Below are positions 2,455-18,392 of a stretch of DNA of 64,000 nt, one piece after another. This stretch comes from Candidatus Poribacteria bacterium (lineage in GTDB: Bacteria > Poribacteria > WGA-4E > UBA9662). Position 1 is the first letter of the stretch. Every line of letters begins with the position of its first letter. The notes under the pieces are model-generated. The model was not told where the DNA came from, made no database searches, and was given only the letters and a program-made list of their open reading frames with translations. The translations under genes and the position numbers were made by a program. The stretch is taken from assembly GCA_002709695.1 (NCBI GenBank), contig PAQF01000078.1, positions 48,351 to 112,350 of the forward strand. Direction: 5' to 3'.

Positions 2455-3324
2455 TTGAACAGTATGGGCTTCATTAAGAGACTTTTTTATAAAACTGTTG
2501 AAACAGCAGCTTTAGAAAAAAAAGTGGATCAGAATGCGGATAAAGAATCAAATCCTTTCTTGGCAGATTTTCCTGAAGATACCAGTGAGAGGCAGAATGA
2601 ATCGGATTCTCTTCTGCAGGGTTCCACTGAAATTATACATGCCGATGAGCCAAATCCTGTTCTAGAAGAGTTCAGCGAAACAAGTCAAAGTTCCTCCTCT
2701 TTGGAAGGGGCAAATGAGCTTATTAGTGCAAACAATCTAAGTTTTGTTGACGGTATTGTTTCTGAGACATCTTTCGATCTTCCTATGGGTGAGTTTGATG
2801 ATGATGAAAATAGAATAGATATTGATAAAGTTTTGACAGCTGGTGGAATTGATCGTAATTGGCAGCTAGATAGTGGTGAGTACTCGGCTGAAAAAGTTAT
2901 GCAACTGATTGAAGAAGGTGTTCCGAAAGAAAGCCTCCCACCTGTTATCAAGGTTTCCGGAAAAAATGTTGAGGATATTGTTCAGGATGCTCTGCAAAAA
3001 CAGGGAATTTGTGAAGAGTTTGAAGAGAACTATAAGCAAGAACACCATATCCAACTTGAACAAACTGAAGCTGATATTGAACAGGTTGAGCTGGAAACCA
3101 ATCAAGAGATAGATCAGCTGAAGACAGAAATGGAAATGAGAGTTCAGGATCTTGAAGAAAATCGGCAGAATAGTTTAAATGAACTTTGTGCGAAGAAGCA
3201 GGCTTTAATTCATAAATTCAATCAAGATATCGTTGTTCTAGATAACTACGAGTCTAAGTGTGCAGAAGTGGTAGAATTTCTCAGGCACCCCGAAACGAAT
3301 GAATCAGAGCAATCGATTATTTAG
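2455..3324 (+). CDS. Hypothetical highly acidic coiled-coil protein. The N-terminus (MNSMGFIKRLF...) resembles the N-terminal amphipathic helix of the downstream PspA-like protein. The true start is possibly the ATG at 2464.
   Basis: 289-aa ORF, Asp/Glu-rich, with a predicted coiled coil in the C-terminal half (QLEQTEADIEQVELETNQEIDQLKTEMEMRVQDLEE). No recognisable enzymatic motif. Same strand as, and 33 nt upstream of, the PspA-like gene. Confidence 0.45.
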   Translation: MNSMGFIKRLFYKTVETAALEKKVDQNADKESNPFLADFPEDTSERQNESDSLLQGSTEIIHADEPNPVLEEFSETSQSSSSLEGANELISANNLSFVDGIVSETSFDLPMGEFDDDENRIDIDKVLTAGGIDRNWQLDSGEYSAEKVMQLIEEGVPKESLPPVIKVSGKNVEDIVQDALQKQGICEEFEENYKQEHHIQLEQTEADIEQVELETNQEIDQLKTEMEMRVQDLEENRQNSLNELCAKKQALIHKFNQDIVVLDNYESKCAEVVEFLRHPETNESEQSII

Positions 3325-3357: not shown

Positions 3358-4122
3358 ATGGGTTTTTTTTCATCAGTCCTTATTCGACTCAAGGGGTTTT
3401 TCCTTCAGGCAGGAGACGACATTGTTTCAGGAAGCACATCAAGTATTAAGGCTACTTATAGAACAATAGAAGAGCAAGAAATTAAACGTTATAATCAAAT
3501 GCTTGATGCTGTTTCTTCTCTTGCAAGACAAAGGTCACAAACAGAACAAGAAATCCAGAAAGATGAAGAGCAACTTAGCGAATTAGCACAGGAAATGGAA
3601 GGCGCGTTAGCTATTGCTGAGCGCGAACCTGAAAATCAGCAAGTACACGAGCAGGCCTACAACCGCGCTTTTACGAAAAAGGAAGAATTAGAAGCCCGTT
3701 TGGAACAACGCCGGAGTAAATTTGAGGAACTAGACCAAAAGGTTGAGAATTACAAAATCGAACTATCCAATTTTCAGGAACGAGTTCAGTCATTGAAACA
3801 AGAAGGTGATGAAGCTGTTGCTGATCTGATCAGTAGTGAGTCAATTGTTCGCATTGAACAAAGATTACAGGGGCTTTCAACAGAAGGTGCGGATCAGGCA
3901 TTAGACGCCGTTCGCCGTAAAGTCCAAGATACAAAGGCTAAAGCCCAAATCGCTTCTGAGATTGGGGGTACCGATGTTTCTCGCCAACGCGAACGCTATC
4001 GAACCGCAGCCAAGCAGAGTAGTGGAGCTAGTGAATTCTCAGAGAGATTGAAGCAAAGGCAGCAAGCAAAAACAGCGCAATCCCAAGCCGAAACAGCAGA
4101 GGAAAGAAAGTTAGGAGAATAG
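3358..4122 (+). CDS. PspA/IM30 (Vipp1)-like coiled-coil membrane-stress protein
   Basis: 254 aa with strong RBS GAGGAGG. The N-terminal amphipathic MGFFSSVLIRLKGFF is followed by a continuous Glu/Gln/Arg/Lys-rich coiled coil (LSELAQEMEGALAIAEREPENQQVHEQAYNRAFTKKEELEARLEQRR...). Length and layout match the PspA/ESCRT-III superfamily, but the family assignment rests on overall pattern, not an alignment. Confidence 0.5.
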   Translation: MGFFSSVLIRLKGFFLQAGDDIVSGSTSSIKATYRTIEEQEIKRYNQMLDAVSSLARQRSQTEQEIQKDEEQLSELAQEMEGALAIAEREPENQQVHEQAYNRAFTKKEELEARLEQRRSKFEELDQKVENYKIELSNFQERVQSLKQEGDEAVADLISSESIVRIEQRLQGLSTEGADQALDAVRRKVQDTKAKAQIASEIGGTDVSRQRERYRTAAKQSSGASEFSERLKQRQQAKTAQSQAETAEERKLGE

Positions 4123-4140: not shown

Positions 4141-5703
4141 ATGGCAGAACAAAAATTGGCGCTTGGCCGAATCTTTATGGTGCTTGTTATTCTCATAGCT
4201 GTTATCGGTGGTCTTGCTTACAAATATGTGATTCCCGAACTTCAAGAGAACCAACAAGCGAAAAAATATGATCAAGCTAGTAGTGGTGGACGTTTTGAGA
4301 CAAATGTCACTGTTGCTGGTGATCCGTGGTCTGGTTATAGTCTTTTTCGTTCTGATCGATTCCGTACGGTTCTTTCCCAACTACAGATTGGTTATCGTTA
4401 TGATACTCAGGAAGATCTAGAGAAACGTTTTCAAGGGTTAGCAGATGGTAAATACGATTTTGTGGTTGCTACCATTGACGGTTATACGCTTAACGCCATC
4501 AATCTTAATTATCCAGGTGTTATTATCTTTTTAGTGGATGAATCCAATGGAGGAGATTCGATTGTTGCCAGTGCAAAAATACAAGCTCTCGATGATTTAG
4601 AAAATGCGAGGGTTTCCTACTCGGCTGGTTTTCCCAGTGAACATCTACTAGATGTTACGCTGACTCATTTTGATATTCTGGGTGTTAGACGTGAACCAGT
4701 GAATGAAGGACTTTCAGAGAAGTCGTATCAAATGTTACAACAGGGACGAGTAGAGGCCGCGGTTGTCTGGGAACCTGAAACATCGCGTGCTATTCAAGAT
4801 GGCTATACTCTACTGACTAGCACCAAGGACAGTGATGATATTATCATTGATGTTTGTATCGCTTCGCGCCAAATTGTCATGGAAAACCCTGAAGTGGTAC
4901 ACAAGGTAACTCGCGCCTATTTTAGGACACTTGATTATTACCAAAAACGAGAATCTGAGTTTGTCCAATATCTGGCTCGAGATGGAGGGGTTAACCAATC
5001 AGTAGCACAGAATATCATGAATGGTATAGACTTTGTCGATCTCAGAGAGAATCACCATCTCTGGTTTGGCATAGGTCAGAATGCCACTGACAAAATTGCA
5101 AAAGTTATTGAAGATACAATTAGTGTCCAACAATTTCATGATAAATTGATGACGGATCCATTTGCTAATAAGCCGGGAAGGGCATATTGGATAGTGAATA
5201 AGGATTTTCTCAGTCAATTGACACCAAATGCTGCTCCTCAAATAAAAGGTATGCCAGAAAAAAAGGTGGCTCCAACCCCAGTTGAGACTAAACGGAAATT
5301 TGCTAGGATGAAAGCCGAGGAGATTGAGAGTAAAACTCGGCGCATCGGTGAAATGAGAGTTGATCCTATCTACTTTGGTAGTGGGTCAGCGAAGTTAAGT
5401 CGTCAGTCGAGATTAGTTGTTGATAAGTTTGCCGAGACCCTTTTGCACTATCCAAATTACCGTTTGGTTTTGCATGGTTATTCATCTCCTACCGGTTCAT
5501 CTCAGATTAACATGGATCTGTCTAGAAAACGTGCTGGATCGATTGCTCGGTATTTGGTTCAAGAACATAGTGTTCAAGGTAGTCGGATTAATACTGTTGC
5601 TCATGGTGATAGGGAACCTCTTGAACGTAATCAAAATGAGACTTATGCTGATTGGTTGGAACGAAATCAACGGACTGAGTTTGTTTTGGTCAAAGATAGA
5701 TAG
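4141..5703 (+). CDS. Membrane-anchored periplasmic substrate-binding-like domain (NMT1/SsuA/TauA/PhnD-like) fused to a C-terminal OmpA/MotB-like peptidoglycan-binding domain
   Basis: N-terminal TM helix (IFMVLVILIAVIGGLAYKYV). The central region (DFVVATIDGYTLNAINLNYPGVIIFLVDESNGGDSIVAS...) resembles a periplasmic binding protein. The C-terminus RVDPIYFGSGSAKLS...YRLVLHGYSSPTGS...NMDLSRKRAGSIARYL...NRRTEFVLV is typical OmpA_C-like. RBS GGAGG. Confidence 0.6.
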   Translation: MAEQKLALGRIFMVLVILIAVIGGLAYKYVIPELQENQQAKKYDQASSGGRFETNVTVAGDPWSGYSLFRSDRFRTVLSQLQIGYRYDTQEDLEKRFQGLADGKYDFVVATIDGYTLNAINLNYPGVIIFLVDESNGGDSIVASAKIQALDDLENARVSYSAGFPSEHLLDVTLTHFDILGVRREPVNEGLSEKSYQMLQQGRVEAAVVWEPETSRAIQDGYTLLTSTKDSDDIIIDVCIASRQIVMENPEVVHKVTRAYFRTLDYYQKRESEFVQYLARDGGVNQSVAQNIMNGIDFVDLRENHHLWFGIGQNATDKIAKVIEDTISVQQFHDKLMTDPFANKPGRAYWIVNKDFLSQLTPNAAPQIKGMPEKKVAPTPVETKRKFARMKAEEIESKTRRIGEMRVDPIYFGSGSAKLSRQSRLVVDKFAETLLHYPNYRLVLHGYSSPTGSSQINMDLSRKRAGSIARYLVQEHSVQGSRINTVAHGDREPLERNQNETYADWLERNQRTEFVLVKDR

Positions 5704-5722: not shown

Positions 5723-6715
5723 TTGAGACATAAATTACAAATGTATTTATCGTATCTTCTTGTTTACTGTTTCCTCGTGTTTGTTTGTAATCGAGTTATA
5801 TGCGCGGAGCCAGTTAAGGTTGGTGTTTCTATCTGGACAGGTTGGATGCCAATTTATTTAATGGAGGAGAAAGGATTCCTTAAAAAACGGTCGCAGGAAT
5901 ATGGGGTTGAGATTGAACTCAAGAAGTTTAAGGATTATCTTGCCTCTGTGCAGGCATTTACCGCTGGAGAATTGGATGCCTGCGCAATGACAATTATGGA
6001 TGCACTTCCACCCGCTGATGCAGGCATTGATGTTGCCGCTGTGCTTGTCAATGATTTCAGTAAAGGTGGAGATGGAATTCTAGTTCAATATGGTATTGAT
6101 GGTTCAAACTTTAAAGGGGTAGAGATACTACTTGAAGAATACTCAGTTTCACATTATTTACTTCTTCGTTATTTAGAGACAATTGGATTAACAGAAAAGG
6201 ATATCAAGGTGAAAAACACACCTGGTGATGATGCAGGTCGTGCTTTTCTATCAGGAAATGCTGAAGCGGTTGCTACGTGGAACCCACATCTTTTTTTGGC
6301 TGAGGATGCAGGACGTGGCTATGTTTTGTTCAATAGCAAGAAAATCCCCGGTGAAATCATCGACTTGGTAGTATTTAACAACAAACGTTTAAAGCAAAAC
6401 CCCAAAGCTGCTCAAGCTTTTGTCTCCGCTTGGTATGATGCCATGGACATGATTAAGGATTCTGAGACACGACAGGAAGCCATCAGTATTATGTCGGAGC
6501 TGGCTGGGACGAAACCTGCAGAATTCAGCAAAATGCTTGAAGGGACAGATTTGTTTTTTGATCCCCAACGTGCCGCCGCTTTCCTAAACAGTGAAGAAAT
6601 TCGAAAAACAGAGAAAAAAGTGGTCAAATTCGCGCAAAACCATGGACTTATCAACGATGAGGTTAAGCTCAGGTACGATGCAACGGTTATTCGAACTGTT
6701 CGTCTGGCCAAATGA
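5723..6715 (+). CDS. ABC transporter substrate-binding protein, NitT/TauT (nitrate/sulfonate/bicarbonate) family
   Basis: Probable TTG start 6 nt after AGGAGG (an alternative ATG is at 5741). Signal peptide/TM (LSYLLVYCFLVFVCNRVICA), followed by a binding-protein-like fold and SsuA/TauA-like length. It immediately precedes a cognate permease and ATPase. Confidence 0.65.
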   Translation: MRHKLQMYLSYLLVYCFLVFVCNRVICAEPVKVGVSIWTGWMPIYLMEEKGFLKKRSQEYGVEIELKKFKDYLASVQAFTAGELDACAMTIMDALPPADAGIDVAAVLVNDFSKGGDGILVQYGIDGSNFKGVEILLEEYSVSHYLLLRYLETIGLTEKDIKVKNTPGDDAGRAFLSGNAEAVATWNPHLFLAEDAGRGYVLFNSKKIPGEIIDLVVFNNKRLKQNPKAAQAFVSAWYDAMDMIKDSETRQEAISIMSELAGTKPAEFSKMLEGTDLFFDPQRAAAFLNSEEIRKTEKKVVKFAQNHGLINDEVKLRYDATVIRTVRLAK

Positions 6716-7533
6716 GCACTCGAAAATTATACCAGGTTGGCGCAGAAATTGATTCACGATTGTCATCAATTTTAGTGCTTTTGCCTATTGTTTTTGTTAT
6801 ATCGTTGTATTTCTATGGATCACATAAGCGGCATCAGGAAAACCCAAAAGATCGGATGATGCCGAATTTGGAGCAGATTCAATCGGGAATTGTCAAAACA
6901 GTTGAAGTTAACCGGAGGACCGGAGATCGGTGGCTCTGGAAGGATCTCAAATATAGTCTTCGGTTGATGGTTGTAAGTGTAACGATTACTGTTGGGTCTG
7001 CTGTGCTCGTTGGGTTGCATATGGCCTGTTTCTCAGCTATTGAAGCGTTGCATATGAAGTTTGTGCGCTTTGTCAGTTTCATCCCACCTCTAGCTCTGTT
7101 GCCCTTGATATTTATTTTTGTTGGCACCGACACACCAGCAAAAGTATTGCTCATCTTTTTAGGGACATATTTTATATTAGTAATGGATGTTTTTCTCGCT
7201 TGCAGGGATGTTCCGAAGAAGCTAATACAGAAAGCTTACACCATGGGGGCATCAACTGTAGAGGTTGTCTTCAAAGTCGTGTTAATGTACGCTTGGCCTA
7301 GAATCCTGAATAGTATTCGTTTTACACTTCGGCAGGCTTGGATATTTTTAATTGCTGCTGAGATGATTGCTTCTGAAGCTGGGTTAGGTTATCGTATTAT
7401 ATTGGTTCAGAGGCAGATCGGTGTCAATATCATTTTATGGTACATTTTTATTATTGGCACTATTGGTTTCATCTGTGATTTTATACTATTACAGGTTATT
7501 CAGAGGTATTATGCTTGGAGTTTGGAGAGATAG
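6712..7533 (+). CDS. ABC transporter permease, NitT/TauT family (SsuC/TauC-like)
   Basis: Multi-TM protein carrying an EAA-loop-like motif (ASEAGLGYRIILVQRQ). Overlaps the upstream SBP gene by 4 nt (ATGA). Confidence 0.8.
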   Translation: MSTRKLYQVGAEIDSRLSSILVLLPIVFVISLYFYGSHKRHQENPKDRMMPNLEQIQSGIVKTVEVNRRTGDRWLWKDLKYSLRLMVVSVTITVGSAVLVGLHMACFSAIEALHMKFVRFVSFIPPLALLPLIFIFVGTDTPAKVLLIFLGTYFILVMDVFLACRDVPKKLIQKAYTMGASTVEVVFKVVLMYAWPRILNSIRFTLRQAWIFLIAAEMIASEAGLGYRIILVQRQIGVNIILWYIFIIGTIGFICDFILLQVIQRYYAWSLER

Positions 7534-7537
7534 CATT

Positions 7538-8422
7538 ATGTCTGAATCCTTGTTGGCATTAGAGATCAAAGATCTGACACTTGTTTTTAAGGATCGGAAA
7601 GCGACAAAGGTTGTTCTGAGTGATGTTAATTTACAGGTCAAGCAAGGCGAATTTGTTGCTATTGTGGGGCCTAGCGGTTGTGGCAAATCGTCTTTATTGA
7701 ACTTGATTGCAGGATTCATTCAACCTACTTCAGGCCAAATTTTGGTCGATGGGGAGCCCATTGAGGGGCCTAATCGGAATATAGGAGTTGTGTTTCAGGA
7801 TTATACACTTTTTCCTTGGTTGACAGTTGTTGACAATGTAGCGTACGGTATGGAATTAGCAGAAATCGATTTTCTTATGAAATGGATTCGTCCCTTTCGT
7901 TTTCGGCAGTTGCACCGTGCTTTCAGAGAAAAAGCAGGCTTTTATCTTGAAGAGATGGGTTTGAAGGAAGCCCAACATAAGAAGCCCTACCAATTGTCAG
8001 GTGGAATGAAGCAAAGAGTAGCCATCGCCCAGGAGGTTATTCGAAAACCGTCGATTTTGCTTATGGATGAACCCTTTGGCGCCCTCGACCCACAGACACG
8101 AGAGGTTCTTCAGGTATTAATCCTAAAAATTCATGAACAGGAACGGAATACCATCTTTTTCGTAACGCACGATTTGGAAGAAGCCGTTTACGTTGCTGAA
8201 CGCGTTATTGTTCTCTCACAATATAAGCCAAATGGTAACAGTGAGGGTGCCACAATTGTCAAAGATGTCTGCGCCCCAGTATTTAAATCTACCGAGGTAA
8301 AACGAACAGATGACTTTGGGGGGCTAATCCAAGATATTCGAAGGTCAGGATTTGCACCGGATCAGAGGGATATTGTAAAAGCATTTGATCAGAGCTATCA
8401 AGACAAAGCAGATAGTCGGTAG
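7538..8422 (+). CDS. ABC transporter ATP-binding protein (SsuB/TauB-like)
   Basis: Walker A GPSGCGKSS, Q-loop, signature LSGGMKQRVAIAQ, Walker B LLMDEPFGALD. The listed ORF start at 7421 overlaps the permease. The ATG at 7538 (MSESLL...), 4 nt after the permease stop, is the likely start. Confidence 0.85.
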   Translation: MSESLLALEIKDLTLVFKDRKATKVVLSDVNLQVKQGEFVAIVGPSGCGKSSLLNLIAGFIQPTSGQILVDGEPIEGPNRNIGVVFQDYTLFPWLTVVDNVAYGMELAEIDFLMKWIRPFRFRQLHRAFREKAGFYLEEMGLKEAQHKKPYQLSGGMKQRVAIAQEVIRKPSILLMDEPFGALDPQTREVLQVLILKIHEQERNTIFFVTHDLEEAVYVAERVIVLSQYKPNGNSEGATIVKDVCAPVFKSTEVKRTDDFGGLIQDIRRSGFAPDQRDIVKAFDQSYQDKADSR

Positions 8423-8561
8423 ATTGTAACTGTTTTTACCTCTGATATTTCCCCAAATCCTATCTGAAACTCGAATTTGTAAGATACTCCGACGTCTTTC
8501 GCAATTTTATGCTGGTGGGATACTGTTTCAAGATCGGTGAGTTATAATTTAGATAACGACA

Positions 8562-9398
8562 ATGACCATGCAACAAGAGAATGATCTTTCGTACCAGAAA
8601 TTAACTTGGAATTTATTTAAAGAGTGCCTTTTTCAGCCTCTATTCTATGGTCCGTTGGCAACTGGGATTTTTTTAGCATTTATTGATAAGCCTGTTCTTT
8701 CACTAGGAGCATTTGTAGCTAGTGCTATATCGTTCTCGTACTATTTTCTTCTGGGCAAGGCACCGCGTAGGCGTATCCAACAGCAAATTGAGGAGCAGAT
8801 TCAACATAACAATGAGGAGAAAATTCGCTTAGATCAGGAGAGCCGATCGGAACTTCATCAGGAACTTGATGAGCGTGGTAGATCCCATTTCGAAAATTTG
8901 ATCAAATTGGAACAAATGCTTGATGAAAAACTAATGAATTTAGGCAATCAGTTAGTGGTCAGTCAGTTGGTAAAGATGTCTAAAGAGGTTACTTTGGAAT
9001 CCATCAAATCTTTGAGAAACCGGGTGATTTACACATCATTGTTAGAACAGTTCGATGTCCAAAAATTGCAGCGGGATCTGAGTGAGACAAAAAAAAAGTA
9101 TGAGGGTGAACGTGATGTCAACCTCAAGAGAGAATTTCGTGAAACAATACAGGCACTAACTAATGAGCTTAACCAACTTAAGAAGTTAGAGACTACGGTT
9201 GAGCAACTAGAACAGGACATCATTACTGCGCAATCTTCGCTTCGAGGTTCCATTCTTCTCGTATCGCAACCAAAGTCAGCTGACCATACATCACGTTTAG
9301 AGCAACAAGTTGCCAAACTACGAGACGAAGTCGAAGTGGCTAGAAAGGTTAATCAAGAATTGGCGCGTTTTGGTATTGATCCTTCGATGAAGGCTTAG
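8562..9398 (+). CDS. Hypothetical membrane protein: two N-terminal TM helices followed by a long coiled coil
   Basis: 278 aa. Hydrophobic segments PLATGIFLAFIDKPVLSLGAFVASAISFSYYFLLG, then heptad-like charged repeats to the C-terminus. No catalytic motif. Confidence 0.5.
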   Translation: MTMQQENDLSYQKLTWNLFKECLFQPLFYGPLATGIFLAFIDKPVLSLGAFVASAISFSYYFLLGKAPRRRIQQQIEEQIQHNNEEKIRLDQESRSELHQELDERGRSHFENLIKLEQMLDEKLMNLGNQLVVSQLVKMSKEVTLESIKSLRNRVIYTSLLEQFDVQKLQRDLSETKKKYEGERDVNLKREFRETIQALTNELNQLKKLETTVEQLEQDIITAQSSLRGSILLVSQPKSADHTSRLEQQVAKLRDEVEVARKVNQELARFGIDPSMKA

Positions 9399-9613: not shown

Positions 9614-11332
9614 ATGAATTGGAAATCAGCACCGCAATTTCTCCAGACGATTATCCAGAAGTTCAATTCTGGGCAGAGCAATCAATTCATATTATACGGG
9701 AACGTGCGTGATTTGTATTCGTTAGGGAAAGACCAGTTCTATTTTTTGACTGACTGTCTAAAACGGTTAATGGACCCTCCTGAAGGTGATCAAAGGCGTG
9801 TCATTGTCTATTATGATTTAATCAGTGGGGTCCAGTTCCGGAATCAAGATGACTTGGTTCTTGTTGAGTCTATTTTGGGACAATCTGAACTTCAGAAGTA
9901 TATGCAGGATAGTGTCCAAAATCCACTGCAAGCATTGGTTTTCCTTCAGGAACTGAGCAAAATCAGTCTTCATGCCATCGACTCCGGAAAGCAAGGATGG
10001 GGTTTCATAATCAACCATGTTGAATCGTTGATTCACCGTCAAGAAGGTAATCATCTGAACGAAGTTGAGCAACGGAAAGCAATGATTTTCCATCAGTGGT
10101 TTACGGATCCGACTTTTGTTCGTGGACACCATTTAGCTATTCTGATTACACAAACGCTCGCAGAGCTAAATGAAATGGTGATTGAACTCCCTTTTGTCAC
10201 TGCCATCCAAGTGCCTCGACCAAATGATATACAGCGACAAAGATATCTTCGGTTTCTCAAAAAGCAACATCATGTTAGTTTGGGGTTGAGGGAAAAAGAT
10301 GCCGTTTTCTATACGGGCGGCTTGACCCTACAAGATTTGCAGAAGATGTTTATGCAAGCGAATCATACTGGTACGAAGCTAACTGCTGAAATGATATTTC
10401 AGCTTACGCAAGAAGTAATTGAAAAAGAACTTAGTGGGAATATTGAATTCCCAATTATTGATCATGATTTTTCCGATGTAATTGGGTCTAAAAAATTATT
10501 AGTAAAATTGGAGGAAATGAAGTCTTTCATTCTGAGTGGTAACTCTGACTTGATGCCAACCGGCATTCTCGTACCTGGCCCGAATGGTGTGGGTAAAACC
10601 TATATTTTCAAGGCGTTTGCTAAAGAATGTGGTTACTTGCCGGTAATCATTAAGAATGTCCGTGGTCAGTATGTTGGACAGACGGAAATGACATGGGAGA
10701 AAATTCGGTCAATTCTTGAAGTCATGGGAAATGTAATGGTGATTTATGACGAAGCCGACACAGAACTTGGAGGTCGGGGTGCTGGTACACATGATGTCGA
10801 TAAGCGGCTCTTTGGGGCAGTTTTGAGGATGATGAGTGACCTGAATAATCGTGGGAAAATCATCTGGATAATTATTACTGCTAGGCCTGATAAACTAGAA
10901 CCGGATATCAAACGAACCGGACGTGCAGGTGAGCACTTGTCTGTCTTTGACCCGGAAGGACAAGAACGTGAAGAATTTATCGATTTTGTCATGTCGAAAA
11001 TTGGATTATCATTCAATGATTTTCTTGAAGATCAAAAACAGCGGTTTTTGGATCATACTGCCAGTTATTCTCCAGCTGATTTTATTCAACTTTTAACCAA
11101 TTTGGAACGCAAAAAACATCTTATCTCTAGGAATCTAACAGCAGATGAAATTTTAGAAACTGGGTATGACTTTATTCCTGCGGATATTAGCTTGCAACGG
11201 CAACTACAGGAATTATTGGCATTTGTTGAATGTTCGTATCAAAGCCTAATTCCGGAAAAATATGCCCAGACAACTAAGCAAAAAGCTTACGCTCAGATTG
11301 GCGAGTTGAAAATTTTATTGGGTGAAAATTAG
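9614..11332 (+). CDS. AAA+ ATPase with a classical AAA C-terminal module and an N-terminal degenerate AAA-like domain
   Basis: C-terminal module: Walker A GPNGVGKT, Walker B VIYDEAD, sensor-1 IIITAR and Arg-finger region PDIKRTGRAGEH (FtsH/CDC48-clade-like). The N-terminal ~300 aa contain QFILYGNVRDLY, which resembles a Walker-A-less AAA core. Confidence 0.75.
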   Translation: MNWKSAPQFLQTIIQKFNSGQSNQFILYGNVRDLYSLGKDQFYFLTDCLKRLMDPPEGDQRRVIVYYDLISGVQFRNQDDLVLVESILGQSELQKYMQDSVQNPLQALVFLQELSKISLHAIDSGKQGWGFIINHVESLIHRQEGNHLNEVEQRKAMIFHQWFTDPTFVRGHHLAILITQTLAELNEMVIELPFVTAIQVPRPNDIQRQRYLRFLKKQHHVSLGLREKDAVFYTGGLTLQDLQKMFMQANHTGTKLTAEMIFQLTQEVIEKELSGNIEFPIIDHDFSDVIGSKKLLVKLEEMKSFILSGNSDLMPTGILVPGPNGVGKTYIFKAFAKECGYLPVIIKNVRGQYVGQTEMTWEKIRSILEVMGNVMVIYDEADTELGGRGAGTHDVDKRLFGAVLRMMSDLNNRGKIIWIIITARPDKLEPDIKRTGRAGEHLSVFDPEGQEREEFIDFVMSKIGLSFNDFLEDQKQRFLDHTASYSPADFIQLLTNLERKKHLISRNLTADEILETGYDFIPADISLQRQLQELLAFVECSYQSLIPEKYAQTTKQKAYAQIGELKILLGEN

Positions 11333-11654: not shown

Positions 11655-13967
11655 ATGTTCAAGCCTCTCTTTATACTTGTCTTTGTCCTTTCAAGTGTGG
11701 GATTTGAAGTGGGTTCACAAATCCTAATTGATAGGGTTGATCAAAAAGTTCATGGTTTGTATTATAGTATCAATGATGAGATCTTTGCCGTTACTACCTC
11801 GAGTAGTGTGAACTTATATAATGCAAAAAAACGAAATAAGGTTTTCGAGATCAAACTTTCTAACAGGCCTAAACAAGTTACCTTTGAAGTACAGGAAAGT
11901 TGGATTGCGGTTCTCATGAGCACAAACACAGTAGACGTTTGGGATATTCGAGGTAAGAACAAAGTGTTCACTATTCAGGCCAAACAGATTGAAAAAGAAA
12001 TTGTAGACATCTGGTTTGTATCATCGGGATTGTGTGTTGGATTAATTGATGGAACACTTTTAAAATTTAATGTGGGTCAAACCGAACCGGAGCAAGTTAT
12101 CGGTGCGAATTACCATGATGTAGCAGGACTTCGCTTCAACCCAACAATTACGCATCAATTCGCAATTGTTCGCAATAACACAATCAGTCTCCACAATTTT
12201 AGAAAAACATTATGGGAGAATCTAGATGGGGCTGACATTGATATGGATAGGTTGGTATTCAATTCCTTGGGTGATCAAATAGCATTTGTTCGTAGTGATA
12301 TTGTGGAAGTGAGGGATTGTCAAACAGGTCATATTCTCAACCAGATAGAGTTCGATGACAAAATCGTAAGTTTTTGTTTCGCACGCCAACCTAATGTTGG
12401 TATTTCTGTATCCTCAAACAATATGATACAGATGTGGGATCTATCAGCTAATCGGGTAGCTAAGACATATCAATACAAACAAGTAAATTCTCCTATTCGA
12501 AATCTAGATTGTACGAAAAACGGCAGGCAATTTGCTTTTTCAACCGATGCAGGAGAAGTTTGGCTTGGTGGAGAAGTGCGAAGAATGAATATCGCAAAAC
12601 AAGTTAAACCGAAAAAAAAACAGGTCTTAGTTAGAAAACCGAAGGCCTTGGTATTGAAGGCAACTCCCTTACCGCCTTATGTCATCACAGTTGGAGAGAC
12701 TATTGAACTTCAGGTCGAATGTTCGCTGTCAGCAGTAATACAATTGTTTACATCAGTCGATAATGCTAGTTTTGATTCAACTTACAATCTGTTTCAGTGG
12801 ACACCTGATTTCTCTCAGGTAGGAGAGAAGGAAATAAGATTTTCGGCAGAAACAAAAGATGGTCGCTCTACTTTCCTGGATCTTGATATTGAGGTTCAGT
12901 CTATTAATATAGCGCCAATTTTCACCAAAATTGGCGCACTTGAAGTACAGAATAACTCAACACCAAAATTAAAAATTAATGAAGGAGAAGTACTTAATAC
13001 CAAGGTGCAAGCTGATGATCAAAATGGTGATTTGCTAACCTATACTGCGACAGGTTTGCCAAACGGTGCTCAAATGGAAGGAAATCGAATTCGATGGAAA
13101 CCATCGTTCGATTTTGTATCTGTTGCAGATCTCAAAACTGAAATCTTGGTTACGTTGATGGCTAGTGATGGCGAATTACATGCCAAACTTCCGATTACTA
13201 TTACTGTATATAACATGGATCAACCAACAGCAACACAACCTGAAGAAAAAATAACAGATGATATCCAAGTTGACCTGCGACCACCTGATCAAATGATTCG
13301 GATTCCCGAGAGGGATTTTGTGATTGGTATAGACAGTGGTATCTCAGAAGAACCGAGCAATGTAGTTTTCATGTTAGCATTTGATGTTGATCGGTTTGAA
13401 GTTACAAATGCTGATTATGCGAACTTTCTGAATAGTCGTCAACGTGTTATTGACACCGAGGGCAAAGTTTTGATTAATCTTGACTCTAAGACTACGAAGA
13501 TTAAGCAAATCAGCAATGGATATCAAGTTCAATTAGGTTTTGAAAGGCACCCGGTTGTAGGGGTGAGTTGGTATGGTGCGAAAGTTTATGCTGAGTGGGT
13601 AGGAAAACGTTTATTAACTGAGATTGAGTGGGAGTCAATTGCCAGAGGAAATGATCAGCGTCTCTTTCCTTGGGGTAACCAGTCGCCCAGAGAGAATGAA
13701 AATTTGCTAAATTATAGGTCGAAAGCCCCAGTGCCGGTTGGGAGTTATCCGAAAGGAGCAAATCCATGGGGTGTACATGATTTATCTGGAAACGTGGCAG
13801 AGTGGGTGATACCAAAGAAAGTTGATGGAGAACCGAAGATAGTCCGAGGAGGGTCATGGAAGAGTCTAAATCCTAGAAGTGTCAGAGCCACTGCACGGTT
13901 TCCTCTATTATCTGAGCAAATGATTTCTTGGGTTGGTTTCCGATGTGCACGTGATATTGAAAACTAA
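11655..13967 (+). CDS. Large secreted multidomain protein: signal peptide, beta-propeller-like repeats, Ig/cadherin-like region, C-terminal formylglycine-generating-enzyme (FGE/SUMF1, DUF323) domain
   Basis: N-terminal signal peptide MFKPLFILVFVLSSVGF. The C-terminal ~250 aa (HPVVGVSWYGAKVYAEWVGKRLLTEIEWE...WGVHDLSGNVAEWV...RGGSW...GFRCARD) match the FGE-sulfatase fold used by GldK/PorK/EgtB-type proteins. Confidence 0.7.
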   Translation: MFKPLFILVFVLSSVGFEVGSQILIDRVDQKVHGLYYSINDEIFAVTTSSSVNLYNAKKRNKVFEIKLSNRPKQVTFEVQESWIAVLMSTNTVDVWDIRGKNKVFTIQAKQIEKEIVDIWFVSSGLCVGLIDGTLLKFNVGQTEPEQVIGANYHDVAGLRFNPTITHQFAIVRNNTISLHNFRKTLWENLDGADIDMDRLVFNSLGDQIAFVRSDIVEVRDCQTGHILNQIEFDDKIVSFCFARQPNVGISVSSNNMIQMWDLSANRVAKTYQYKQVNSPIRNLDCTKNGRQFAFSTDAGEVWLGGEVRRMNIAKQVKPKKKQVLVRKPKALVLKATPLPPYVITVGETIELQVECSLSAVIQLFTSVDNASFDSTYNLFQWTPDFSQVGEKEIRFSAETKDGRSTFLDLDIEVQSINIAPIFTKIGALEVQNNSTPKLKINEGEVLNTKVQADDQNGDLLTYTATGLPNGAQMEGNRIRWKPSFDFVSVADLKTEILVTLMASDGELHAKLPITITVYNMDQPTATQPEEKITDDIQVDLRPPDQMIRIPERDFVIGIDSGISEEPSNVVFMLAFDVDRFEVTNADYANFLNSRQRVIDTEGKVLINLDSKTTKIKQISNGYQVQLGFERHPVVGVSWYGAKVYAEWVGKRLLTEIEWESIARGNDQRLFPWGNQSPRENENLLNYRSKAPVPVGSYPKGANPWGVHDLSGNVAEWVIPKKVDGEPKIVRGGSWKSLNPRSVRATARFPLLSEQMISWVGFRCARDIEN

Positions 13968-14042
13968 AGTGCTTTTCAAAACTGGCATTTCGGTGGCCAG
14001 ATGCTTGTAAAACAAAATTTTTAAAATTGATGGAGTATAAGT

Positions 14043-14840
14043 ATGATAAAAGTCATTGTTGATGGTGCTTGTGGTCGAATGGGTAAAATGTTAACTTCCC
14101 TAGTCACTAGACAACCAGATATGGAGCTTGTTGGGGCAACAGAGTATCCTTCACATCCGAAAATAGGTGTAGATGTTGGTGAGGTTGCTGGTATCGGTTC
14201 AATTGGAATCAAAATTGTGGAAGATCTAACAGCTGTTATTAATTATGGAGATGTCGTCATCGAGTTCACATCTCCTGAAGCTACGATCTCTAATTTCAAA
14301 AAAGTCGTTGATGCAGGAAAGTCTATGGTCATTGGCACAACTGGTTGTACAATTGACCAATTGACGGAAATCCGATTGTTAGCAGAACATGTTCCGTGTC
14401 TTATGTCGCCGAATATGAGTGTTGGGGTTAACGTTATGTTGAAAGCAATCGAGCTTGTGGCCAAAGCACTTGGTGATGAATATGATGTCGAAGTTATTGA
14501 AGCTCACCATAATCAGAAAGCAGACTCACCTAGTGGTACTGCTGTCCGTATCGCCGATGTGTTAGCAACGGCATTAGACCGAGACATTAATCAAGTTGGT
14601 GTTTACGGTCGTGAAGGGATAGTTGGAGCACGTCCCGAGAAAGAGATTGGTATTCATGCCATTCGTGGAGGTGACATTATTGGTGATCATACTGTTCTTT
14701 TCGCTGGAATTGGTGAAAGGGTAGAGGTTTCCCATAGGGCACAGAGCCGCGAGTCTTTTGCTAGTGGGGCAGTCCGAGCTGCACGGTGGATTATTAATGC
14801 ACCTAAAGGACTTCATGATATTAGTGAAGTTCTCTTCTAA
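14043..14840 (+). CDS. dapB: 4-hydroxy-tetrahydrodipicolinate reductase
   Basis: N-terminal Rossmann motif VDGACGRMG. Conserved HHNQKADSPSGTA substrate-binding motif. 265 aa. Confidence 0.85.
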   Translation: MIKVIVDGACGRMGKMLTSLVTRQPDMELVGATEYPSHPKIGVDVGEVAGIGSIGIKIVEDLTAVINYGDVVIEFTSPEATISNFKKVVDAGKSMVIGTTGCTIDQLTEIRLLAEHVPCLMSPNMSVGVNVMLKAIELVAKALGDEYDVEVIEAHHNQKADSPSGTAVRIADVLATALDRDINQVGVYGREGIVGARPEKEIGIHAIRGGDIIGDHTVLFAGIGERVEVSHRAQSRESFASGAVRAARWIINAPKGLHDISEVLF

Positions 14841-14879
14841 CACTTACAGGATTTTGTCAGCCTATAAGGGGGATATCTT

Positions 14880-15455
14880 GTGGATTTGCAAAAGAAAATT
14901 GACGGCTGGTTTGTGCCACTTTCTTGTAGCGAGAAGACTTTGAGTTCAGCTTATCAGGAACTTCAGAAGTTTGGTTTGAAACAAGAAGAAATTCCTTACA
15001 TTATACAGATTGTGGAAAACCCCAAATTCGATTTGCCAGGCGGTGATATTTTTCATGGGAAGACAGATATAGAAACACACGATTACCTTCACATTATTTT
15101 GGGTAGAGGAGTCCTTGCAAAAGATGAGGCTTTTGTTATTGGCTTTACTATGGGAAGCTCCAACCGTGTTACTTCGACTGAGGAAAGCCTCTATAGTTTT
15201 TTTGCTAAGTATTTATACCCCAAAGCATACCGTTTTACGGATGACGACCTACACGTTTTCAAAGATGCGGTGAAGCTTGGTTTTATTTCCGATTGTCAAT
15301 CTTTGGCCGAGGTGGACTACTCTTGTTATCTTCAGTATCCGTTGCAGGAGATACGAGAGGACTTGGGTATAGAAACCAACCTGTTACAAGCTTATTACGC
15401 TATTGAGAAACGACGATATCCGGATTCAGTAGAGAGCCAAAGGTTGCTCAGTTAG
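14880..15455 (+). CDS. Hypothetical protein (GTG start)
   Basis: 191-aa ORF with no overlap and no recognisable motif (contains HDYLHIILGRG). Same strand, 40 nt after dapB. Confidence 0.45.
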   Translation: MDLQKKIDGWFVPLSCSEKTLSSAYQELQKFGLKQEEIPYIIQIVENPKFDLPGGDIFHGKTDIETHDYLHIILGRGVLAKDEAFVIGFTMGSSNRVTSTEESLYSFFAKYLYPKAYRFTDDDLHVFKDAVKLGFISDCQSLAEVDYSCYLQYPLQEIREDLGIETNLLQAYYAIEKRRYPDSVESQRLLS

Positions 15456-15518
15456 GAATCATAGTACAGATATTCTTTCAGTTGACGGTTAAGTAATTCG
15501 ATCCAATCATTCCATTTC

Positions 15519-17396
15519 TTGTGCCATTTTGAATTTAAGGAGACCATTATGCCTTTAAAAAGGTTAATTATCGTTATTTTGCTGAGTGTGATGTGTTTTG
15601 TTTCGACTACCAATGCGCAACAGAATTTTTCAGATGAAATAGGGCCTACCCGGGTTAGAGTTGTTCAATCCCAAGATCCATTGTTAATTCCTTATATTAC
15701 TTGGGGGGGGGAATCGGCGTTATTTTATGCTAATGGAGGTTTATCGACTCAACCTAATTCAATCATGGCTAGTTTGGGATTAAATTTAAAGCTGGTTCCG
15801 GGTGATGACTTTATGCAGCAAGTCAGGGATTACTTAGCTGGTAGATCCCCAGTTCTACGCGGTACGTTTAGAATGATTGCTCAAGCTAGCGAAGTAATTG
15901 GACGCGATCCTAGGACACAGGGTGTTGTTTTTGGTCAGTTAACTTGGTCTGCTGGTGATCATTTTGTTGGCAGATCTAACATTAGAAAAATCTCTGACTT
16001 AAAGGGTAAAAAGATCGCTGTCCAAAAAGGGGGACCTCATGTTGGGATGTTGTATGATATGTTGTTGACGGCTAGACTTCCAAAGTCTGACCTGCAGATC
16101 ATATGGATGGATGAATTAACGGGAAAAAACAGCCCAGCGGAAAAGTTTAGGATAGACCCAACAGTCTCCGGTTGTTTTGTCATTACACCGGATATGCTTA
16201 GTTTGGTTGGTGATTATCACGCAATTGGTGATGGGACAGGAGGTACGGTTAAAAGCGCACGATTGGTGGTTAGTACAGCAACATTATCCCGTTCGATTGC
16301 AGATGTTTATGTATGCCGAAAAGATTATATTGATAAAAATAGTGTCGTCGTTGAAAAGTTTTTTGCTGGGTATTTAAAAGGTGCAGAAGAAGTTATTCGT
16401 CTGAAAAAAGATTATGAAGCCGGTGGTTCAAAAAAGTATATGGCTCTACTTCAAATGATGCAGGATATTTATGGGAAGTCAGTGTTACCAACGCTTGATG
16501 AAGATGCTCATGGGCTTATCGCTGATTGTGCGTTTGTTGGGCAACCTGGCAATATGGCGTTTTTTAATGATTCGACAAATGTTGTAACAGGATTTGAAGG
16601 GGTTAATAAAAATGGGCTGGATATGGCTATCAACTGGGGATTTGCTAGAAAGAGACACAACTTGATCAGTTCTAGCTTGGATTTCAAATCGCCAACTTTT
16701 ACAAACCTACTAACAACAACTGTTATGACTCCGATTCAAAGAAAGCGTTTCAAAGAAGAATCAGTTAGAGCTGAAATTGAAACATTTAGTGAAGAAGATA
16801 TTCTAGACGATAATACACTAATATCATTTACAATTCAGTTTGAAGCTAACCAGGACACGTTCAGTGAAACTCAGTATCGTGAAGAATTCGATCGCGTTAT
16901 TGAACTTACTTCTCGGTTTGGTAACGCGGCGGTAGCGATTAAAGGACATACTGATCCCTCAAAAGTTCTGTTTTCTTTGGTAAAAACTGGAATTAAAAGA
17001 GGAATTCTAAAGCGGACAGGAACAAGAGGAAGTTATGAGTATTTTATGAACGGTAGGTCCTTTAGTTTGGAAGACACATCCGAATTGATTCGGCTGATTC
17101 AACAAAAGAAATTTGATGACGGGAGTGATTTTGATGGACCATACCAAATAATGAGAGCTGGTCTGAAGTTGTCTGAGCAGAGGGGGGAGGCTGTCAAGAA
17201 AGCGATTCTTGCCTATGCGAGCAGAAAAAACGTAAGGATTGAAGCTGAACAGATTATTCCAGTAGGAGTTGGTATCAAAGAGCCTGTGATTGCTAAGCCA
17301 ACGAACTCGGTGGAAGCGGCAAAAAACCGGCGTGTGGAGTTTGCTTTAATTAAGATTTCTTCTGAGTCTGTTGCTGAGGCTGATTTTGATTTCTAA
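15519..17396 (+). CDS. Secreted substrate-binding-like domain fused to a C-terminal OmpA-like domain that carries a large insertion; paralogous in architecture to 4141..5703
   Basis: Signal peptide IVILLSVMCFVSTTNA. Binding-protein-like region (KKIAVQKGGPHVGMLYDMLL). C-terminus AVAIKGHTDPSKV...[~60 aa insert]...LSEQRGEAVKKAI...NRRVEFALI matches an OmpA_C-like motif. Contains a 9-G run at 15703..15711. Confidence 0.6.
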   Translation: MCHFEFKETIMPLKRLIIVILLSVMCFVSTTNAQQNFSDEIGPTRVRVVQSQDPLLIPYITWGGESALFYANGGLSTQPNSIMASLGLNLKLVPGDDFMQQVRDYLAGRSPVLRGTFRMIAQASEVIGRDPRTQGVVFGQLTWSAGDHFVGRSNIRKISDLKGKKIAVQKGGPHVGMLYDMLLTARLPKSDLQIIWMDELTGKNSPAEKFRIDPTVSGCFVITPDMLSLVGDYHAIGDGTGGTVKSARLVVSTATLSRSIADVYVCRKDYIDKNSVVVEKFFAGYLKGAEEVIRLKKDYEAGGSKKYMALLQMMQDIYGKSVLPTLDEDAHGLIADCAFVGQPGNMAFFNDSTNVVTGFEGVNKNGLDMAINWGFARKRHNLISSSLDFKSPTFTNLLTTTVMTPIQRKRFKEESVRAEIETFSEEDILDDNTLISFTIQFEANQDTFSETQYREEFDRVIELTSRFGNAAVAIKGHTDPSKVLFSLVKTGIKRGILKRTGTRGSYEYFMNGRSFSLEDTSELIRLIQQKKFDDGSDFDGPYQIMRAGLKLSEQRGEAVKKAILAYASRKNVRIEAEQIIPVGVGIKEPVIAKPTNSVEAAKNRRVEFALIKISSESVAEADFDF

Positions 17397-17438
17397 TAGG
17401 GCTTTAATTCCCATGTTTTTTTAAATAGGAACTGGGTT

Positions 17439-18392
17439 ATGCAGAACAAAAGCTTAAAAGCGTTTCTATTTGCTATCTTTGTTTTTCTTGTGCCTTTATC
17501 TGTGACTTTTTTATCTGCTGAGAATATACATACAGATAATATTGTTGTTGTTTTGGATGCATCGGGATCGATGCAAGAGGAATTCAGTAGCGATCCAACA
17601 CAAATAAGGATGGATGCAGCTAAAACAGCATTACAAGCAGTTTTAACAATGATTCACGACGGCACGAATGTTGGACTCCTCGTTTTTAGTGGTTCCAATG
17701 TGAATAAACATTGGGTTTATCCTCTTGGACCAAAGAACAATGAGGTTTTGGCTAAAGCTATTAATTTACCCCTTCCTGGGGGTAAAACGCCTCTGGGGGA
17801 ATACCTCAAAATTGGTGCTGATCGACTTCTTGAGCAACGGGAAAAACAGTATAATTATGGAAGTTATCGTCTATTAGTTGTGACAGATGGCGACGCAAGT
17901 GACCGTGATAAGGTTCAGTTGTATACACCAGAGATAATGCGTAGGCAAATTCGAATTGATGTGATCGGCGTAGACATGGAAAAAAATCATATGTTAGCTA
18001 CCGTTGTTGATAGTTATCGTCGAGCTGACAATCCGAAGCAATTAATAAAAGCAGTATCCGATGTTCTCGCTGAGGTTCCCAGTACTGGGATAGATACTGA
18101 AGGGGAGAATATGTTTGAACTAATATCACCGCTTACCGATGAAGTAGTTTTGTCTCTGATTAGTGAAATAACAAAAGTTCCAGGAAATCAACCCATTGGC
18201 ACCCAGTTGGTAACACCTGCACAGGCAACAGAGATGAGTGCGCCAACTCTAACAGTTAATACTGGTACTAGTCAGCCAAGTAGTAATCAAAAGTCCAACA
18301 TAGGATTTTTGATTATCATTATCGGTTTATTAGTAATAACATGGCTAATTTTTAAAAAAATCAAGCCAATGATAAGGCCTAGCATCAAATAG
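17439..18392 (+). CDS. von Willebrand factor type A (VWA) domain protein with signal peptide and C-terminal TM anchor
   Basis: MIDAS-like IVVVLDASGSM, later LVVTDGDASD. Ser/Thr-rich linker, then a hydrophobic C-terminal helix FLIIIIGLLVITWLIF. Confidence 0.7.
   Translation: MQNKSLKAFLFAIFVFLVPLSVTFLSAENIHTDNIVVVLDASGSMQEEFSSDPTQIRMDAAKTALQAVLTMIHDGTNVGLLVFSGSNVNKHWVYPLGPKNNEVLAKAINLPLPGGKTPLGEYLKIGADRLLEQREKQYNYGSYRLLVVTDGDASDRDKVQLYTPEIMRRQIRIDVIGVDMEKNHMLATVVDSYRRADNPKQLIKAVSDVLAEVPSTGIDTEGENMFELISPLTDEVVLSLISEITKVPGNQPIGTQLVTPAQATEMSAPTLTVNTGTSQPSSNQKSNIGFLIIIIGLLVITWLIFKKIKPMIRPSIK

Follow-up and report, generated by a model that had tools for sequence, protein, structure and literature searches.

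A binding-protein–OmpA fusion of Candidatus Poribacteria as a candidate wall-associated receptor in a PspA-type envelope module

Ravi et al. (2024, mSystems; PMC11237479) described operons that run from a PspA gene through a periplasmic binding protein (PBP) fused to an OmpA domain, a permease, an ABC ATPase and a transmembrane (TM) Snf7 protein to an AAA+ ATPase; they inferred that the fusion reaches peptidoglycan through its OmpA domain and recognises the transported solute through its PBP domain. Their example is the neighbourhood of OGG56892.1 in Candidatus Handelsmanbacteria, and the AAA+ protein of their operons carries two AAA domains of the classical type, of which the N-terminal one is inactive and the C-terminal one active (PMC11237479). 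Makarova and Koonin (2010; PMC2875224) had earlier proposed that neighbourhoods of vWA, GTPase and OmpA-family genes constitute a membrane-remodelling system. According to reviews, bacteria lack a Vps4-like regulator of PspA polymers. Here, we analysed a stretch of 64,000 nucleotides (nt), the window, from a Candidatus Poribacteria bacterium (contig PAQF01000078.1, positions 48,351 to 112,350), in which the gene at 4141–5703 on the forward (+) strand encodes such a fusion of a binding protein with an OmpA-like domain. Both the architecture and the operon type have been published and named before; the window contributes a member from Poribacteria. Alignments, structure models and analogy to characterised binding proteins suggest, with a probability of about 0.5, that this fusion would be a tethered, wall-associated receptor for a small cation, serving the adjacent NitT/TauT-type importer within a PspA-type envelope module.

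The open reading frame (ORF), from the ATG at 4141 to the stop at 5703, lies exactly where the initial annotation had placed it and encodes 520 amino acids (aa). From its ORF, Pfam and NCBIfam matches, an AlphaFold2 (AF2) model and fold matches in the PDB, the protein begins with a hydrophobic helix, continues with a binding-protein domain of the TauA/SsuA class and ends, after a flexible linker, in an OmpA_C-like domain. The model was built on 28 homologues and reached a mean predicted local distance difference test score (pLDDT) of 87.9 and a predicted template modelling score (pTM) of 0.82. It consists of a helix (aa 2–46), a two-lobe alpha/beta domain (aa 54–360) and a second alpha/beta domain (aa 392–519), the latter two connected by a linker of ~30 residues between the two periplasmic domains (~aa 361–391; 5221–5313, +). 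The linker was modelled with low confidence, with pLDDT values below 50 at aa 363–375 and no secondary structure predicted over aa 361–391, and across the family the segment equivalent to aa 353–410 varies between 40 and 63 aa. The three-part architecture of N-terminal hydrophobic helix, binding-protein fold and OmpA_C domain is real.

By sequence, the central domain (4300–5220, +; aa 54–360) resembled NMT1/SsuA proteins only weakly. PF09084 scored 19.6 bits, just below its cut-off of 20.5, PF13379 scored 17.7 bits (cut-off 24.7) and TIGR01728 (SsuA_fam) 44 bits with E 1.3e-11 (cut-off 163); none of the curated NitT/TauT-family (NMT1/SsuA/TauA) models reached its cut-off on the fusion protein. 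The top fold match in the PDB was TauA (6ssy; Foldseek E 3.4e-17, TM-score 0.79 normalised to the target), followed by SsuA, ThiY and Thi5, i.e., class II binding proteins of the NMT1/NitT-TauT group. A profile of the binding-domain family (A3) reached SsuA (E 4e-13) and TauA (E 3e-9) as well. The model and its fold matches thus support the proposal of the initial annotation that this part folds as a type II periplasmic binding protein, and the domain is predicted to possess a conserved pocket (W63, Y66, D139, S166, W210, D237).

In TauA, Glu106, Trp176 and Asp205 are ligand contacts validated by mutation or observed in the structure; mutation of Glu106 abolishes taurine binding and Asp205 is the amine-selecting residue. 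In the profile alignment, D139, W210 and D237 of the fusion correspond to Glu106, Trp176 and Asp205, respectively, and the P165–S166 loop aligns with Thr132–Thr133. The sulfonate-binding Gln30 of TauA has no counterpart in the fusion, where this region reads D61-P62-W63. D139, W210 and D237 are kept in 96–99% of 171 relatives, the pocket positions aligned with TauA in 96–100%, with the aromatics at positions 63 and 66 likewise conserved, and the acidic or aromatic character at the five positions W63, Y66, D139, W210 and D237 in 97–100%. A guanidine site of similar composition was reported for GimA (Sll1080; W59, W62, D135, F205 and D233; Kd 97 nM; PMC12704784). The five positions of the fusion are spaced 3/73/71/27, compared with 3/73/70/28 in GimA, for which the residue numbers were taken from the paper. 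The spacing is nearly the same in SBP2, the second solute-binding protein encoded in the window (W38/W41/D117/W186/D214; 3/76/69/28). Judged by residue numbers and by the alignment to TauA, the cleft of the fusion, with two Asp and three aromatics, is predicted to be an intact pocket for a small cation, most likely of the guanidinium or amine type.

Binding proteins of the same subfamily were also found in three Cyanobium/Synechococcus genomes and in one metagenome-assembled genome (MAG) labelled Sulfopaludibacter (loci L043–L046, ~7650–8960). These are lipoproteins with a lipobox that share the DESxGGD, xYPP and LDV motifs and lack the OmpA domain, and each adjoins a divergent ClpC-like gene. 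From these sequences, the binding-domain subfamily seems to be tethered differently in different lineages.

The C-terminal domain (5314–5700, +; aa 392–520) is, by its sequence, a genuine OmpA_C domain. PF00691 matched aa 411–501 with 62.7 bits (cut-off 27.2, E 4.2e-17), and a profile search of the PDB returned ~70 OmpA_C-like chains (best E 1e-28). The motif region aligned without gaps to the GHTD/GYTD...LSxxRA region of 5wtp and Rv0899, two solved OmpA_C domains, which places Arg464 on the LSxxRA arginine and Ser449 (codon 5485–5487) on the Asp of GHTD/GYTD, within a conserved G-[HY]-[ST]-S-P motif. The C-terminal NxRxE motif is present too; it reads NQRTEFVLV and not NRRTEFVLV as initially quoted. 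In the OmpA protein of A. baumannii, the two corresponding residues, Asp271 and Arg286, bind diaminopimelate (PMC5974059). The initial annotation had asked whether the peptidoglycan-binding residues are conserved, which applies to the arginine (Arg in 170 of 171 full-length family members) and not to the aspartate: this position is D in 69 of the 171 members, S in 57, G in 23, A in 10 and N in 7. The distribution is not random: the Asp was lost in every member linked to PspA, AAA+ or VWA genes, including those from Poribacteria, Cloacimonadota, Riflebacteria, Sumerlaeota and Verrucomicrobiota and the Vibrio plasmid homologue examined (pSEA2), in which the motif reads GHTS. The three GNTD-retaining members examined were transporter-only or solitary. 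Since the Asp is replaced by Ser449, canonical recognition of diaminopimelate should not be assumed.

The fusion had initially been considered unusual. A word-indexed search returned 35 relatives, all ~510–550 aa long with an OmpA domain, and an exhaustive profile search yielded 1,461 representatives of 50%-identity clusters at E≤1e-30, of which the best 150 matches were nearly all full-length (~490–570 aa). The architecture is therefore not unusual, but belongs to a large, already named and computationally described family. With one genome per species, full-length relatives occurred in Candidatus Poribacteria (88–90% identical to the fusion), Cloacimonadota, Riflebacteria, Sumerlaeota, Verrucomicrobiota and Acidobacteriota. 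By the identity of the poribacterial relatives, the window most likely stems from a pelagic poribacterial genome. TBLASTN searches against plasmids added full-length homologues on large Vibrio plasmids (29–30% identity over 91–98% of the query, E 1e-54 to 6e-59). RefSeq/PGAP names such proteins [quoted passage not shown], e.g., WP_176703827.1 on pSEA2 of Vibrio alfacsensis and WP_126605897.1 on a V. penaeicida plasmid. No PstS-type family was among the Pfam matches and the 25 NCBIfam matches listed for the fusion, and its fold matches were TauA, SsuA and ThiY; hence, the "phosphate" in this name is not supported by our sequence and model comparisons, in which the binding domain appears NMT1/TauA-like and not PstS-like. 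Literature searches with the RefSeq product name and for combinations of TelA, vWA and OmpA found nothing specific.

How the protein is held in the envelope depends on its N terminus. A hydrophobic segment (4171–4233, +; aa 11–31, IFMVLVILIAVIGGLAYKYVI), i.e., a signal anchor or a cleavable signal peptide, contains a core of 17 uncharged, very hydrophobic residues (aa 11–27, IFMVLVILIAVIGGLAY). The TM anchor claimed initially is present as a hydrophobic segment, which may serve as an anchor or may be cleaved off. A charged helical stretch of ~25 residues links the core to the first strand of the binding domain, and several relatives, e.g., P0034 and P0031, lack a small-residue cleavage motif. 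Because of these three features, an uncleaved signal anchor is the probable state according to sequence and model. Were the segment instead a cleaved Sec signal peptide, for which there is a smaller but appreciable chance, the mature protein would be periplasmic and soluble and held solely by its OmpA-like domain, that is, tethered to the wall but not doubly tethered, which is compatible with either a receptor or a scaffold. This variant draws on the label "SIG" that Ravi et al. gave to this protein type (PMC11237479), on the small residues G25-L26-A27, a possible cleavage site that closes the core, and on a hydropathy that does not exceed that of the clearly cleavable signal peptides of neighbouring proteins, from which hydropathy and charge statistics could not separate the segment. 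Besides the length and hydrophobicity of the core and the relatives devoid of the motif, it has against it that the AF2 helix runs on to residue 46 and that the core is followed, across the family, by a median of 33 residues up to the W63 equivalent (~25 before the first strand), unlike in SBP2.

An N-terminal TM helix combined with a C-terminal OmpA-like domain is also the layout of MotB/PomB/ZorB-like stator subunits, which couple ion flow to work, and weak matches to NF006541, NF006508 and the PADLOC model of ZorB (E 2e-5) point in the same direction. However, the MotB and ZorB models matched the OmpA domain only, aa 11–31 contain neither Asp nor Glu, a binding-protein domain of ~300 residues is interposed between helix and OmpA domain, and the cluster genes scanned include none of the MotA/ExbB/TolQ/ZorA type. 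A stator function is thus very improbable, and we rejected it for the missing acidic residue in the helix and the missing channel partner among these genes.

In the window, the fusion gene is followed by the genes of an importer. SBP2 (5723–6715, +) is a conventional secreted binding protein of the NitT/TauT family (TIGR03427 276 bits, cut-off 334; PF13379 79 bits) with 20% identity to the binding domain of the fusion. A TauC/SsuC-like permease (6712–7533, +; PF00528; NCBIfam TauC/SaoP/SsuC) and a TauB/SaoA-like ABC ATPase (~7538–8422, +; PF00005 131 bits; NF040729, NF008421) come next. The initial annotation had correctly described a second, conventional binding protein after the fusion, and had called the fusion gene the first of the operon. 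It is the first of the transporter genes, yet two genes precede it on the same strand with gaps of 34 and 19 nt. The four genes from the fusion to the ATPase are tightly packed, with gaps of ≤20 nt or overlaps, an order that would also suit a more ordinary role, in which the fusion is a redundant binding protein of the importer with a wall-binding tag and the PspA, AAA+ and VWA genes are mere neighbours. Tethered binding proteins, as lipoproteins or with a TM anchor, are common in other lineages, and the cyanobacterial members of this binding-domain subfamily carry a lipid anchor and no OmpA domain, both of which fit such a role. Nevertheless, we regard it as quite unlikely: the linkage to PspA, AAA+, paralogue and VWA genes recurs in rearranged orders across at least seven lineages (Poribacteria, Riflebacteria, Cloacimonadota, Sumerlaeota, Verrucomicrobiota, Acidobacteriota and the Vibrio plasmids), which is hard to explain by chance, and Ravi et al. 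found the same linkage independently.

The two preceding genes encode an acidic protein of 289 aa without a Pfam family, here called X (2455–3324, +), and, 34 nt further and 19 nt upstream of the fusion gene, a PspA/Vipp1-like protein of the ESCRT-III superfamily (3358–4122, +; 254 aa). The X gene probably starts the operon, and positional homologues of X precede the PspA gene in six further loci (L001–L003, L048, L050 and L054). PF04012 matched the 254-aa protein itself with 21 bits, below the cut-off. A PspA profile built without Poribacteria failed to retrieve it, and for this reason the assignment rests on its own homologues (58–98% identity), which carry PF04012, on a profile of the family (A4), for which all eight PDB matches were Vipp1/PspA (best E 2e-4), and on fold matches, of which the 12 best were Vipp1/PspA for a weak model (pLDDT 61).

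Downstream of the importer, a coiled-coil protein with two predicted TM segments, here called Y (8562–9398, +), occupies the position of the "TM+Snf7" protein of Ravi et al. No Pfam family matched Y, and no Pfam, PDB or hhalign signal tied it to PspA or Snf7; an hhalign comparison of the alignment of these two-TM (2TM) proteins with the PspA alignment gave a probability of 1%. Homologues of Y were located 3′ of the fusion gene or of the transporter in 14 loci, and the coiled-coil neighbours of different phyla did not match each other in pairwise BLASTP. The next gene encodes a classical AAA+ ATPase of the CDC48/VCP-like type (9614–11332, +; 572 aa; PF00004 66 bits; TIGR01243; VCP-like ATPase in the PDB, E 6e-28), which has one recognisable AAA domain (aa 318–442) preceded by ~300 N-terminal residues without a family match. 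The remaining parts stand ~4 kb downstream of this cluster. They are a longer paralogue of the fusion protein (15519–17396, +; 625 aa) with a cleavable-looking signal peptide, an NMT1-like domain (PF09084 25.6 bits) and a split, partial OmpA-like domain, in which both the canonical Asp and Arg are kept (GHTD...LSEQRG...NRRVEF), and a VWA protein (17439–18392, +; PF00092 E 2e-12) that has an intact MIDAS (DASGS) in addition to its signal peptide and C-terminal TM segment.

The gene between the AAA+ gene and this pair (11655–13967, +) encodes a secreted protein of 770 aa with a WD40-type beta-propeller, an Ig-like (He_PIG) region and a C-terminal FGE-sulfatase (formylglycine-generating-enzyme-like) domain, and was found in the same position in L001 and L003. 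At the other end, a divergent gene on the minus strand (1–2133, −), syntenic in L001–L003 and probably unrelated, had been caught by an over-broad iterated profile as a candidate for the AAA+ protein of the cluster and was rejected as a ClpB/ClpA-type double-AAA chaperone. A scan for promoters and terminators performed no better than on shuffled sequence, and PADLOC returned domain-level matches to module parts and recognised no known defence system.

To describe the neighbours in relatives, we counted genes around 38 fusions without the Asp; many of these loci are truncated by the end of their contig. The longer paralogue was present in 27 of the 38 loci, VWA in 24, PspA in 18, AAA+ in 17, the ABC ATPase in 16, and the permease and the 2TM protein in 14 each. 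The most constant neighbours across phyla are thus the paralogue and VWA and not the transporter; the transporter-operon context described initially is too narrow for a gene that resides in a cluster of PspA-like, 2TM coiled-coil and AAA+ genes. In most related loci, the paralogue and then VWA are located directly upstream of the fusion gene. In the paralogues (~540–670 aa), an NMT1-like domain follows the signal peptide and an insertion of 25–75 aa interrupts the OmpA-like domain. Of the 16 paralogues aligned, most, that of the window among them, have preserved the Asp (G[HN][STA]D); the Arg of LSxxR is present throughout. The PspA gene directly precedes the fusion gene in the window, L048, L054 and L047, and lies two or three genes before it in L050 and L007. 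Judging from the relatives, the gene set is modular. In L047 and L052, a coiled-coil protein, the fusion, the permease and the ATPase follow each other and the fusion is the sole binding protein of the transporter, as it likewise is in the Handelsmanbacteria example of Ravi et al. (PMC11237479).

Such neighbourhoods bear on a different role, in which the fusion is no transporter subunit. Its binding domain would then sense a ligand in the periplasm or the condition of the wall, and the fusion, the Asp-bearing paralogue and VWA would form a bridge from the inner membrane to peptidoglycan that positions or regulates the cytoplasmic PspA/2TM/AAA+ machinery, with the ABC transporter, where present, using its own free SBP2. 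The census, with the paralogue and VWA ahead of the ATPase and the permease, is in line with this role, and so is the arrangement X, PspA, fusion, 2TM protein and AAA+ in L048 and L054, where no ABC transporter lies within 9 kb. In the window and on the Vibrio plasmids, the transporter also has a conventional binding protein of its own, and an Asp that is lost in the fusion but kept in the paralogue paired with it would be consistent with a heteromeric anchor. On the other hand, the cytoplasmic stub of the fusion measures only ~10 residues, so that signalling across the membrane would need a partner; the pocket is equally conserved in the transporter-only loci L047 and L052, where the fusion clearly is the sole binding protein; and many of the transporter-free loci end at contig ends. 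We therefore consider a pure sensor or scaffold possible, but on balance doubtful.

Three of the loci contained further genes of note. In L048, the gene after the transporter-free cluster (13337–15520) encodes a protein of 727 aa with a weak C-terminal TerB-like match (23 bits), another tellurite/stress-type domain. L050 contains a FHA-GAF-sigma54-activator (16233–18170) of the PspF-like class of bacterial enhancer-binding proteins, a possible regulator, which is located ~1.9 kb downstream of the cluster and ~5.6 kb from the fusion gene, beyond two SBP_bac_5 genes on the opposite strand. In L017, an Opitutia MAG, a coiled-coil protein of 243 aa follows the fusion and is itself followed by a DO-GTPase2 (PF19993) and a 1,260-aa GAP1-N2 protein (PF20013; 10593–16187). 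This recalls the neighbourhoods of Makarova and Koonin (2010) and the link of DO-GTPases to PSP systems noted by Ravi et al.

On the Vibrio plasmids, the order is ATPase, paralogue, VWA, fusion, 2TM protein, TelA (PF05816, 171 bits), a TIGR03427-type binding protein and permease. TelA thus stands in for PspA, and the adjacent genes include no AAA+ gene; the 2TM coiled-coil protein stands 3′ of the fusion gene, yet it was not retrieved by the Y profile. In V. alfacsensis pSEA2 (L055, 229933–249342) and on the V. penaeicida plasmid (L056), the module adjoins PRTRC and RctB genes; the module is mobile.

Returning to the tethered receptor for a small cation, the parts could work together as follows. 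The N-terminal hydrophobic helix exports or anchors the fusion protein, and the OmpA-like domain would hold it at peptidoglycan; given that the canonical Asp of the fusion is lost, its OmpA domain may bind the wall jointly with the nearby paralogue that bears the Asp. The cleft would bind a small cation, most likely of the guanidinium or amine type, as in GimA and TauA, and the liganded domain would serve the neighbouring ABC importer of the NitT/TauT type, by itself in some lineages and together with the free SBP2 in the window. The module would act with membrane-stress proteins of the PspA type (elsewhere of the TelA type), the 2TM coiled-coil protein and the classical AAA+ ATPase, and as a unit it would tie the uptake or sensing of solutes at the wall to the maintenance or remodelling of the inner membrane. 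The published computational inference of Ravi et al. agrees with this reading. The initial suggestion of a wall-anchored receptor, scaffold or tether by the ABC importer resembles that inference and is compatible with all findings.

Several observations weigh against the receptor. Wall binding by the fusion is assumed, as its peptidoglycan-contacting Asp is Ser449, and the hydrophobic segment may be cleaved off as a signal peptide. The likeness to GimA uses residue numbers quoted in a paper and not a direct alignment. The PspA assignment in the window is weak on the protein's own sequence and was missed by the profile from other phyla, and our comparisons did not reproduce a Snf7 relationship for the 2TM protein. 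In addition to the transporter-free L048 and L054, several loci of Verrucomicrobiota comprise only the triad of paralogue, VWA and fusion, and in L005 the fusion is solitary. Transport can therefore not be the universal role of the fusion.

A bolder version, which we regard as unlikely, would make the fusion one half of a heteromeric wall anchor with its paralogue and, together with VWA, a ligand-gated, guanidinium- or amine-sensing bridge between peptidoglycan and inner membrane that recruits or regulates an ESCRT-III-like machine of PspA or TelA, the 2TM protein and a Vps4-like AAA+ ATPase. If true, such a bridge would couple the state of the wall or of the solute to ATP-driven membrane remodelling across the envelope, which is undescribed in bacteria. 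In these clusters, proteins of the PspA type occur together with a classical AAA+ ATPase and with parts that lie in the periplasm and are associated with the wall, and the function of the whole module is where the remaining interest lies. The loss of the Asp versus its retention in an obligate-looking paralogue, the VWA partner and the cation pocket make the module testable, and its presence on plasmids of cultivable Vibrio species offers an experimental entry point.

Compared with known systems, the OmpA domain of the fusion has the LSxxRA arginine (Arg286 in A. baumannii OmpA), the NxRxE motif and the alpha/beta order in common with the OmpA_C anchors of Pal, YiaD, PA0833, MotB and the C-terminal domain of A. 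baumannii OmpA. Those anchors sit on a beta-barrel, a lipid anchor or a stator helix, whereas that of the fusion sits on a binding protein and has Ser449 at the equivalent of Asp271. TauA, SsuA and GimA resemble the fusion in fold (TauA) and pocket positions, and a TauC/SsuC-like permease and a TauB-like ATPase are encoded next door in the window; unlike the fusion, they are soluble or lipid-anchored and lack an OmpA domain. The neighbourhoods of Makarova and Koonin share vWA and OmpA-domain proteins with the module and, in the Opitutia locus, a DO-GTPase2 with a GAP1-N2 protein, and membrane remodelling is the theme proposed for both; no FtsZ-like gene was found near the fusion gene here, and the link is a lead only. 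The RefSeq-named homologues on Vibrio plasmids have the same neighbours as the window (long paralogue, VWA, 2TM coiled-coil protein, TIGR03427-type binding protein, permease and ATPase), but differ in the TelA at the place of PspA and in having no AAA+ gene adjacent, and this substitution of TelA for PspA is a further, modest extension. Closest is the "SIG+PBPB+OmpA" type of Ravi et al., with the same domain architecture and gene order as in the window, to which the window adds SBP2 between fusion and permease and X upstream of PspA. Their main text makes no mention of the pair of paralogue and VWA, of the loss of the OmpA Asp or of a cation-type pocket (PMC11237479). What appears to be new, in addition to the longer, Asp-keeping paralogue and VWA as the commonest neighbours (in the window at 15519–18392), is the loss of the Asp in every PspA- or VWA-linked relative, paired with the paralogue that keeps it, and the predicted cation pocket with its GimA/TauA-like spacing.

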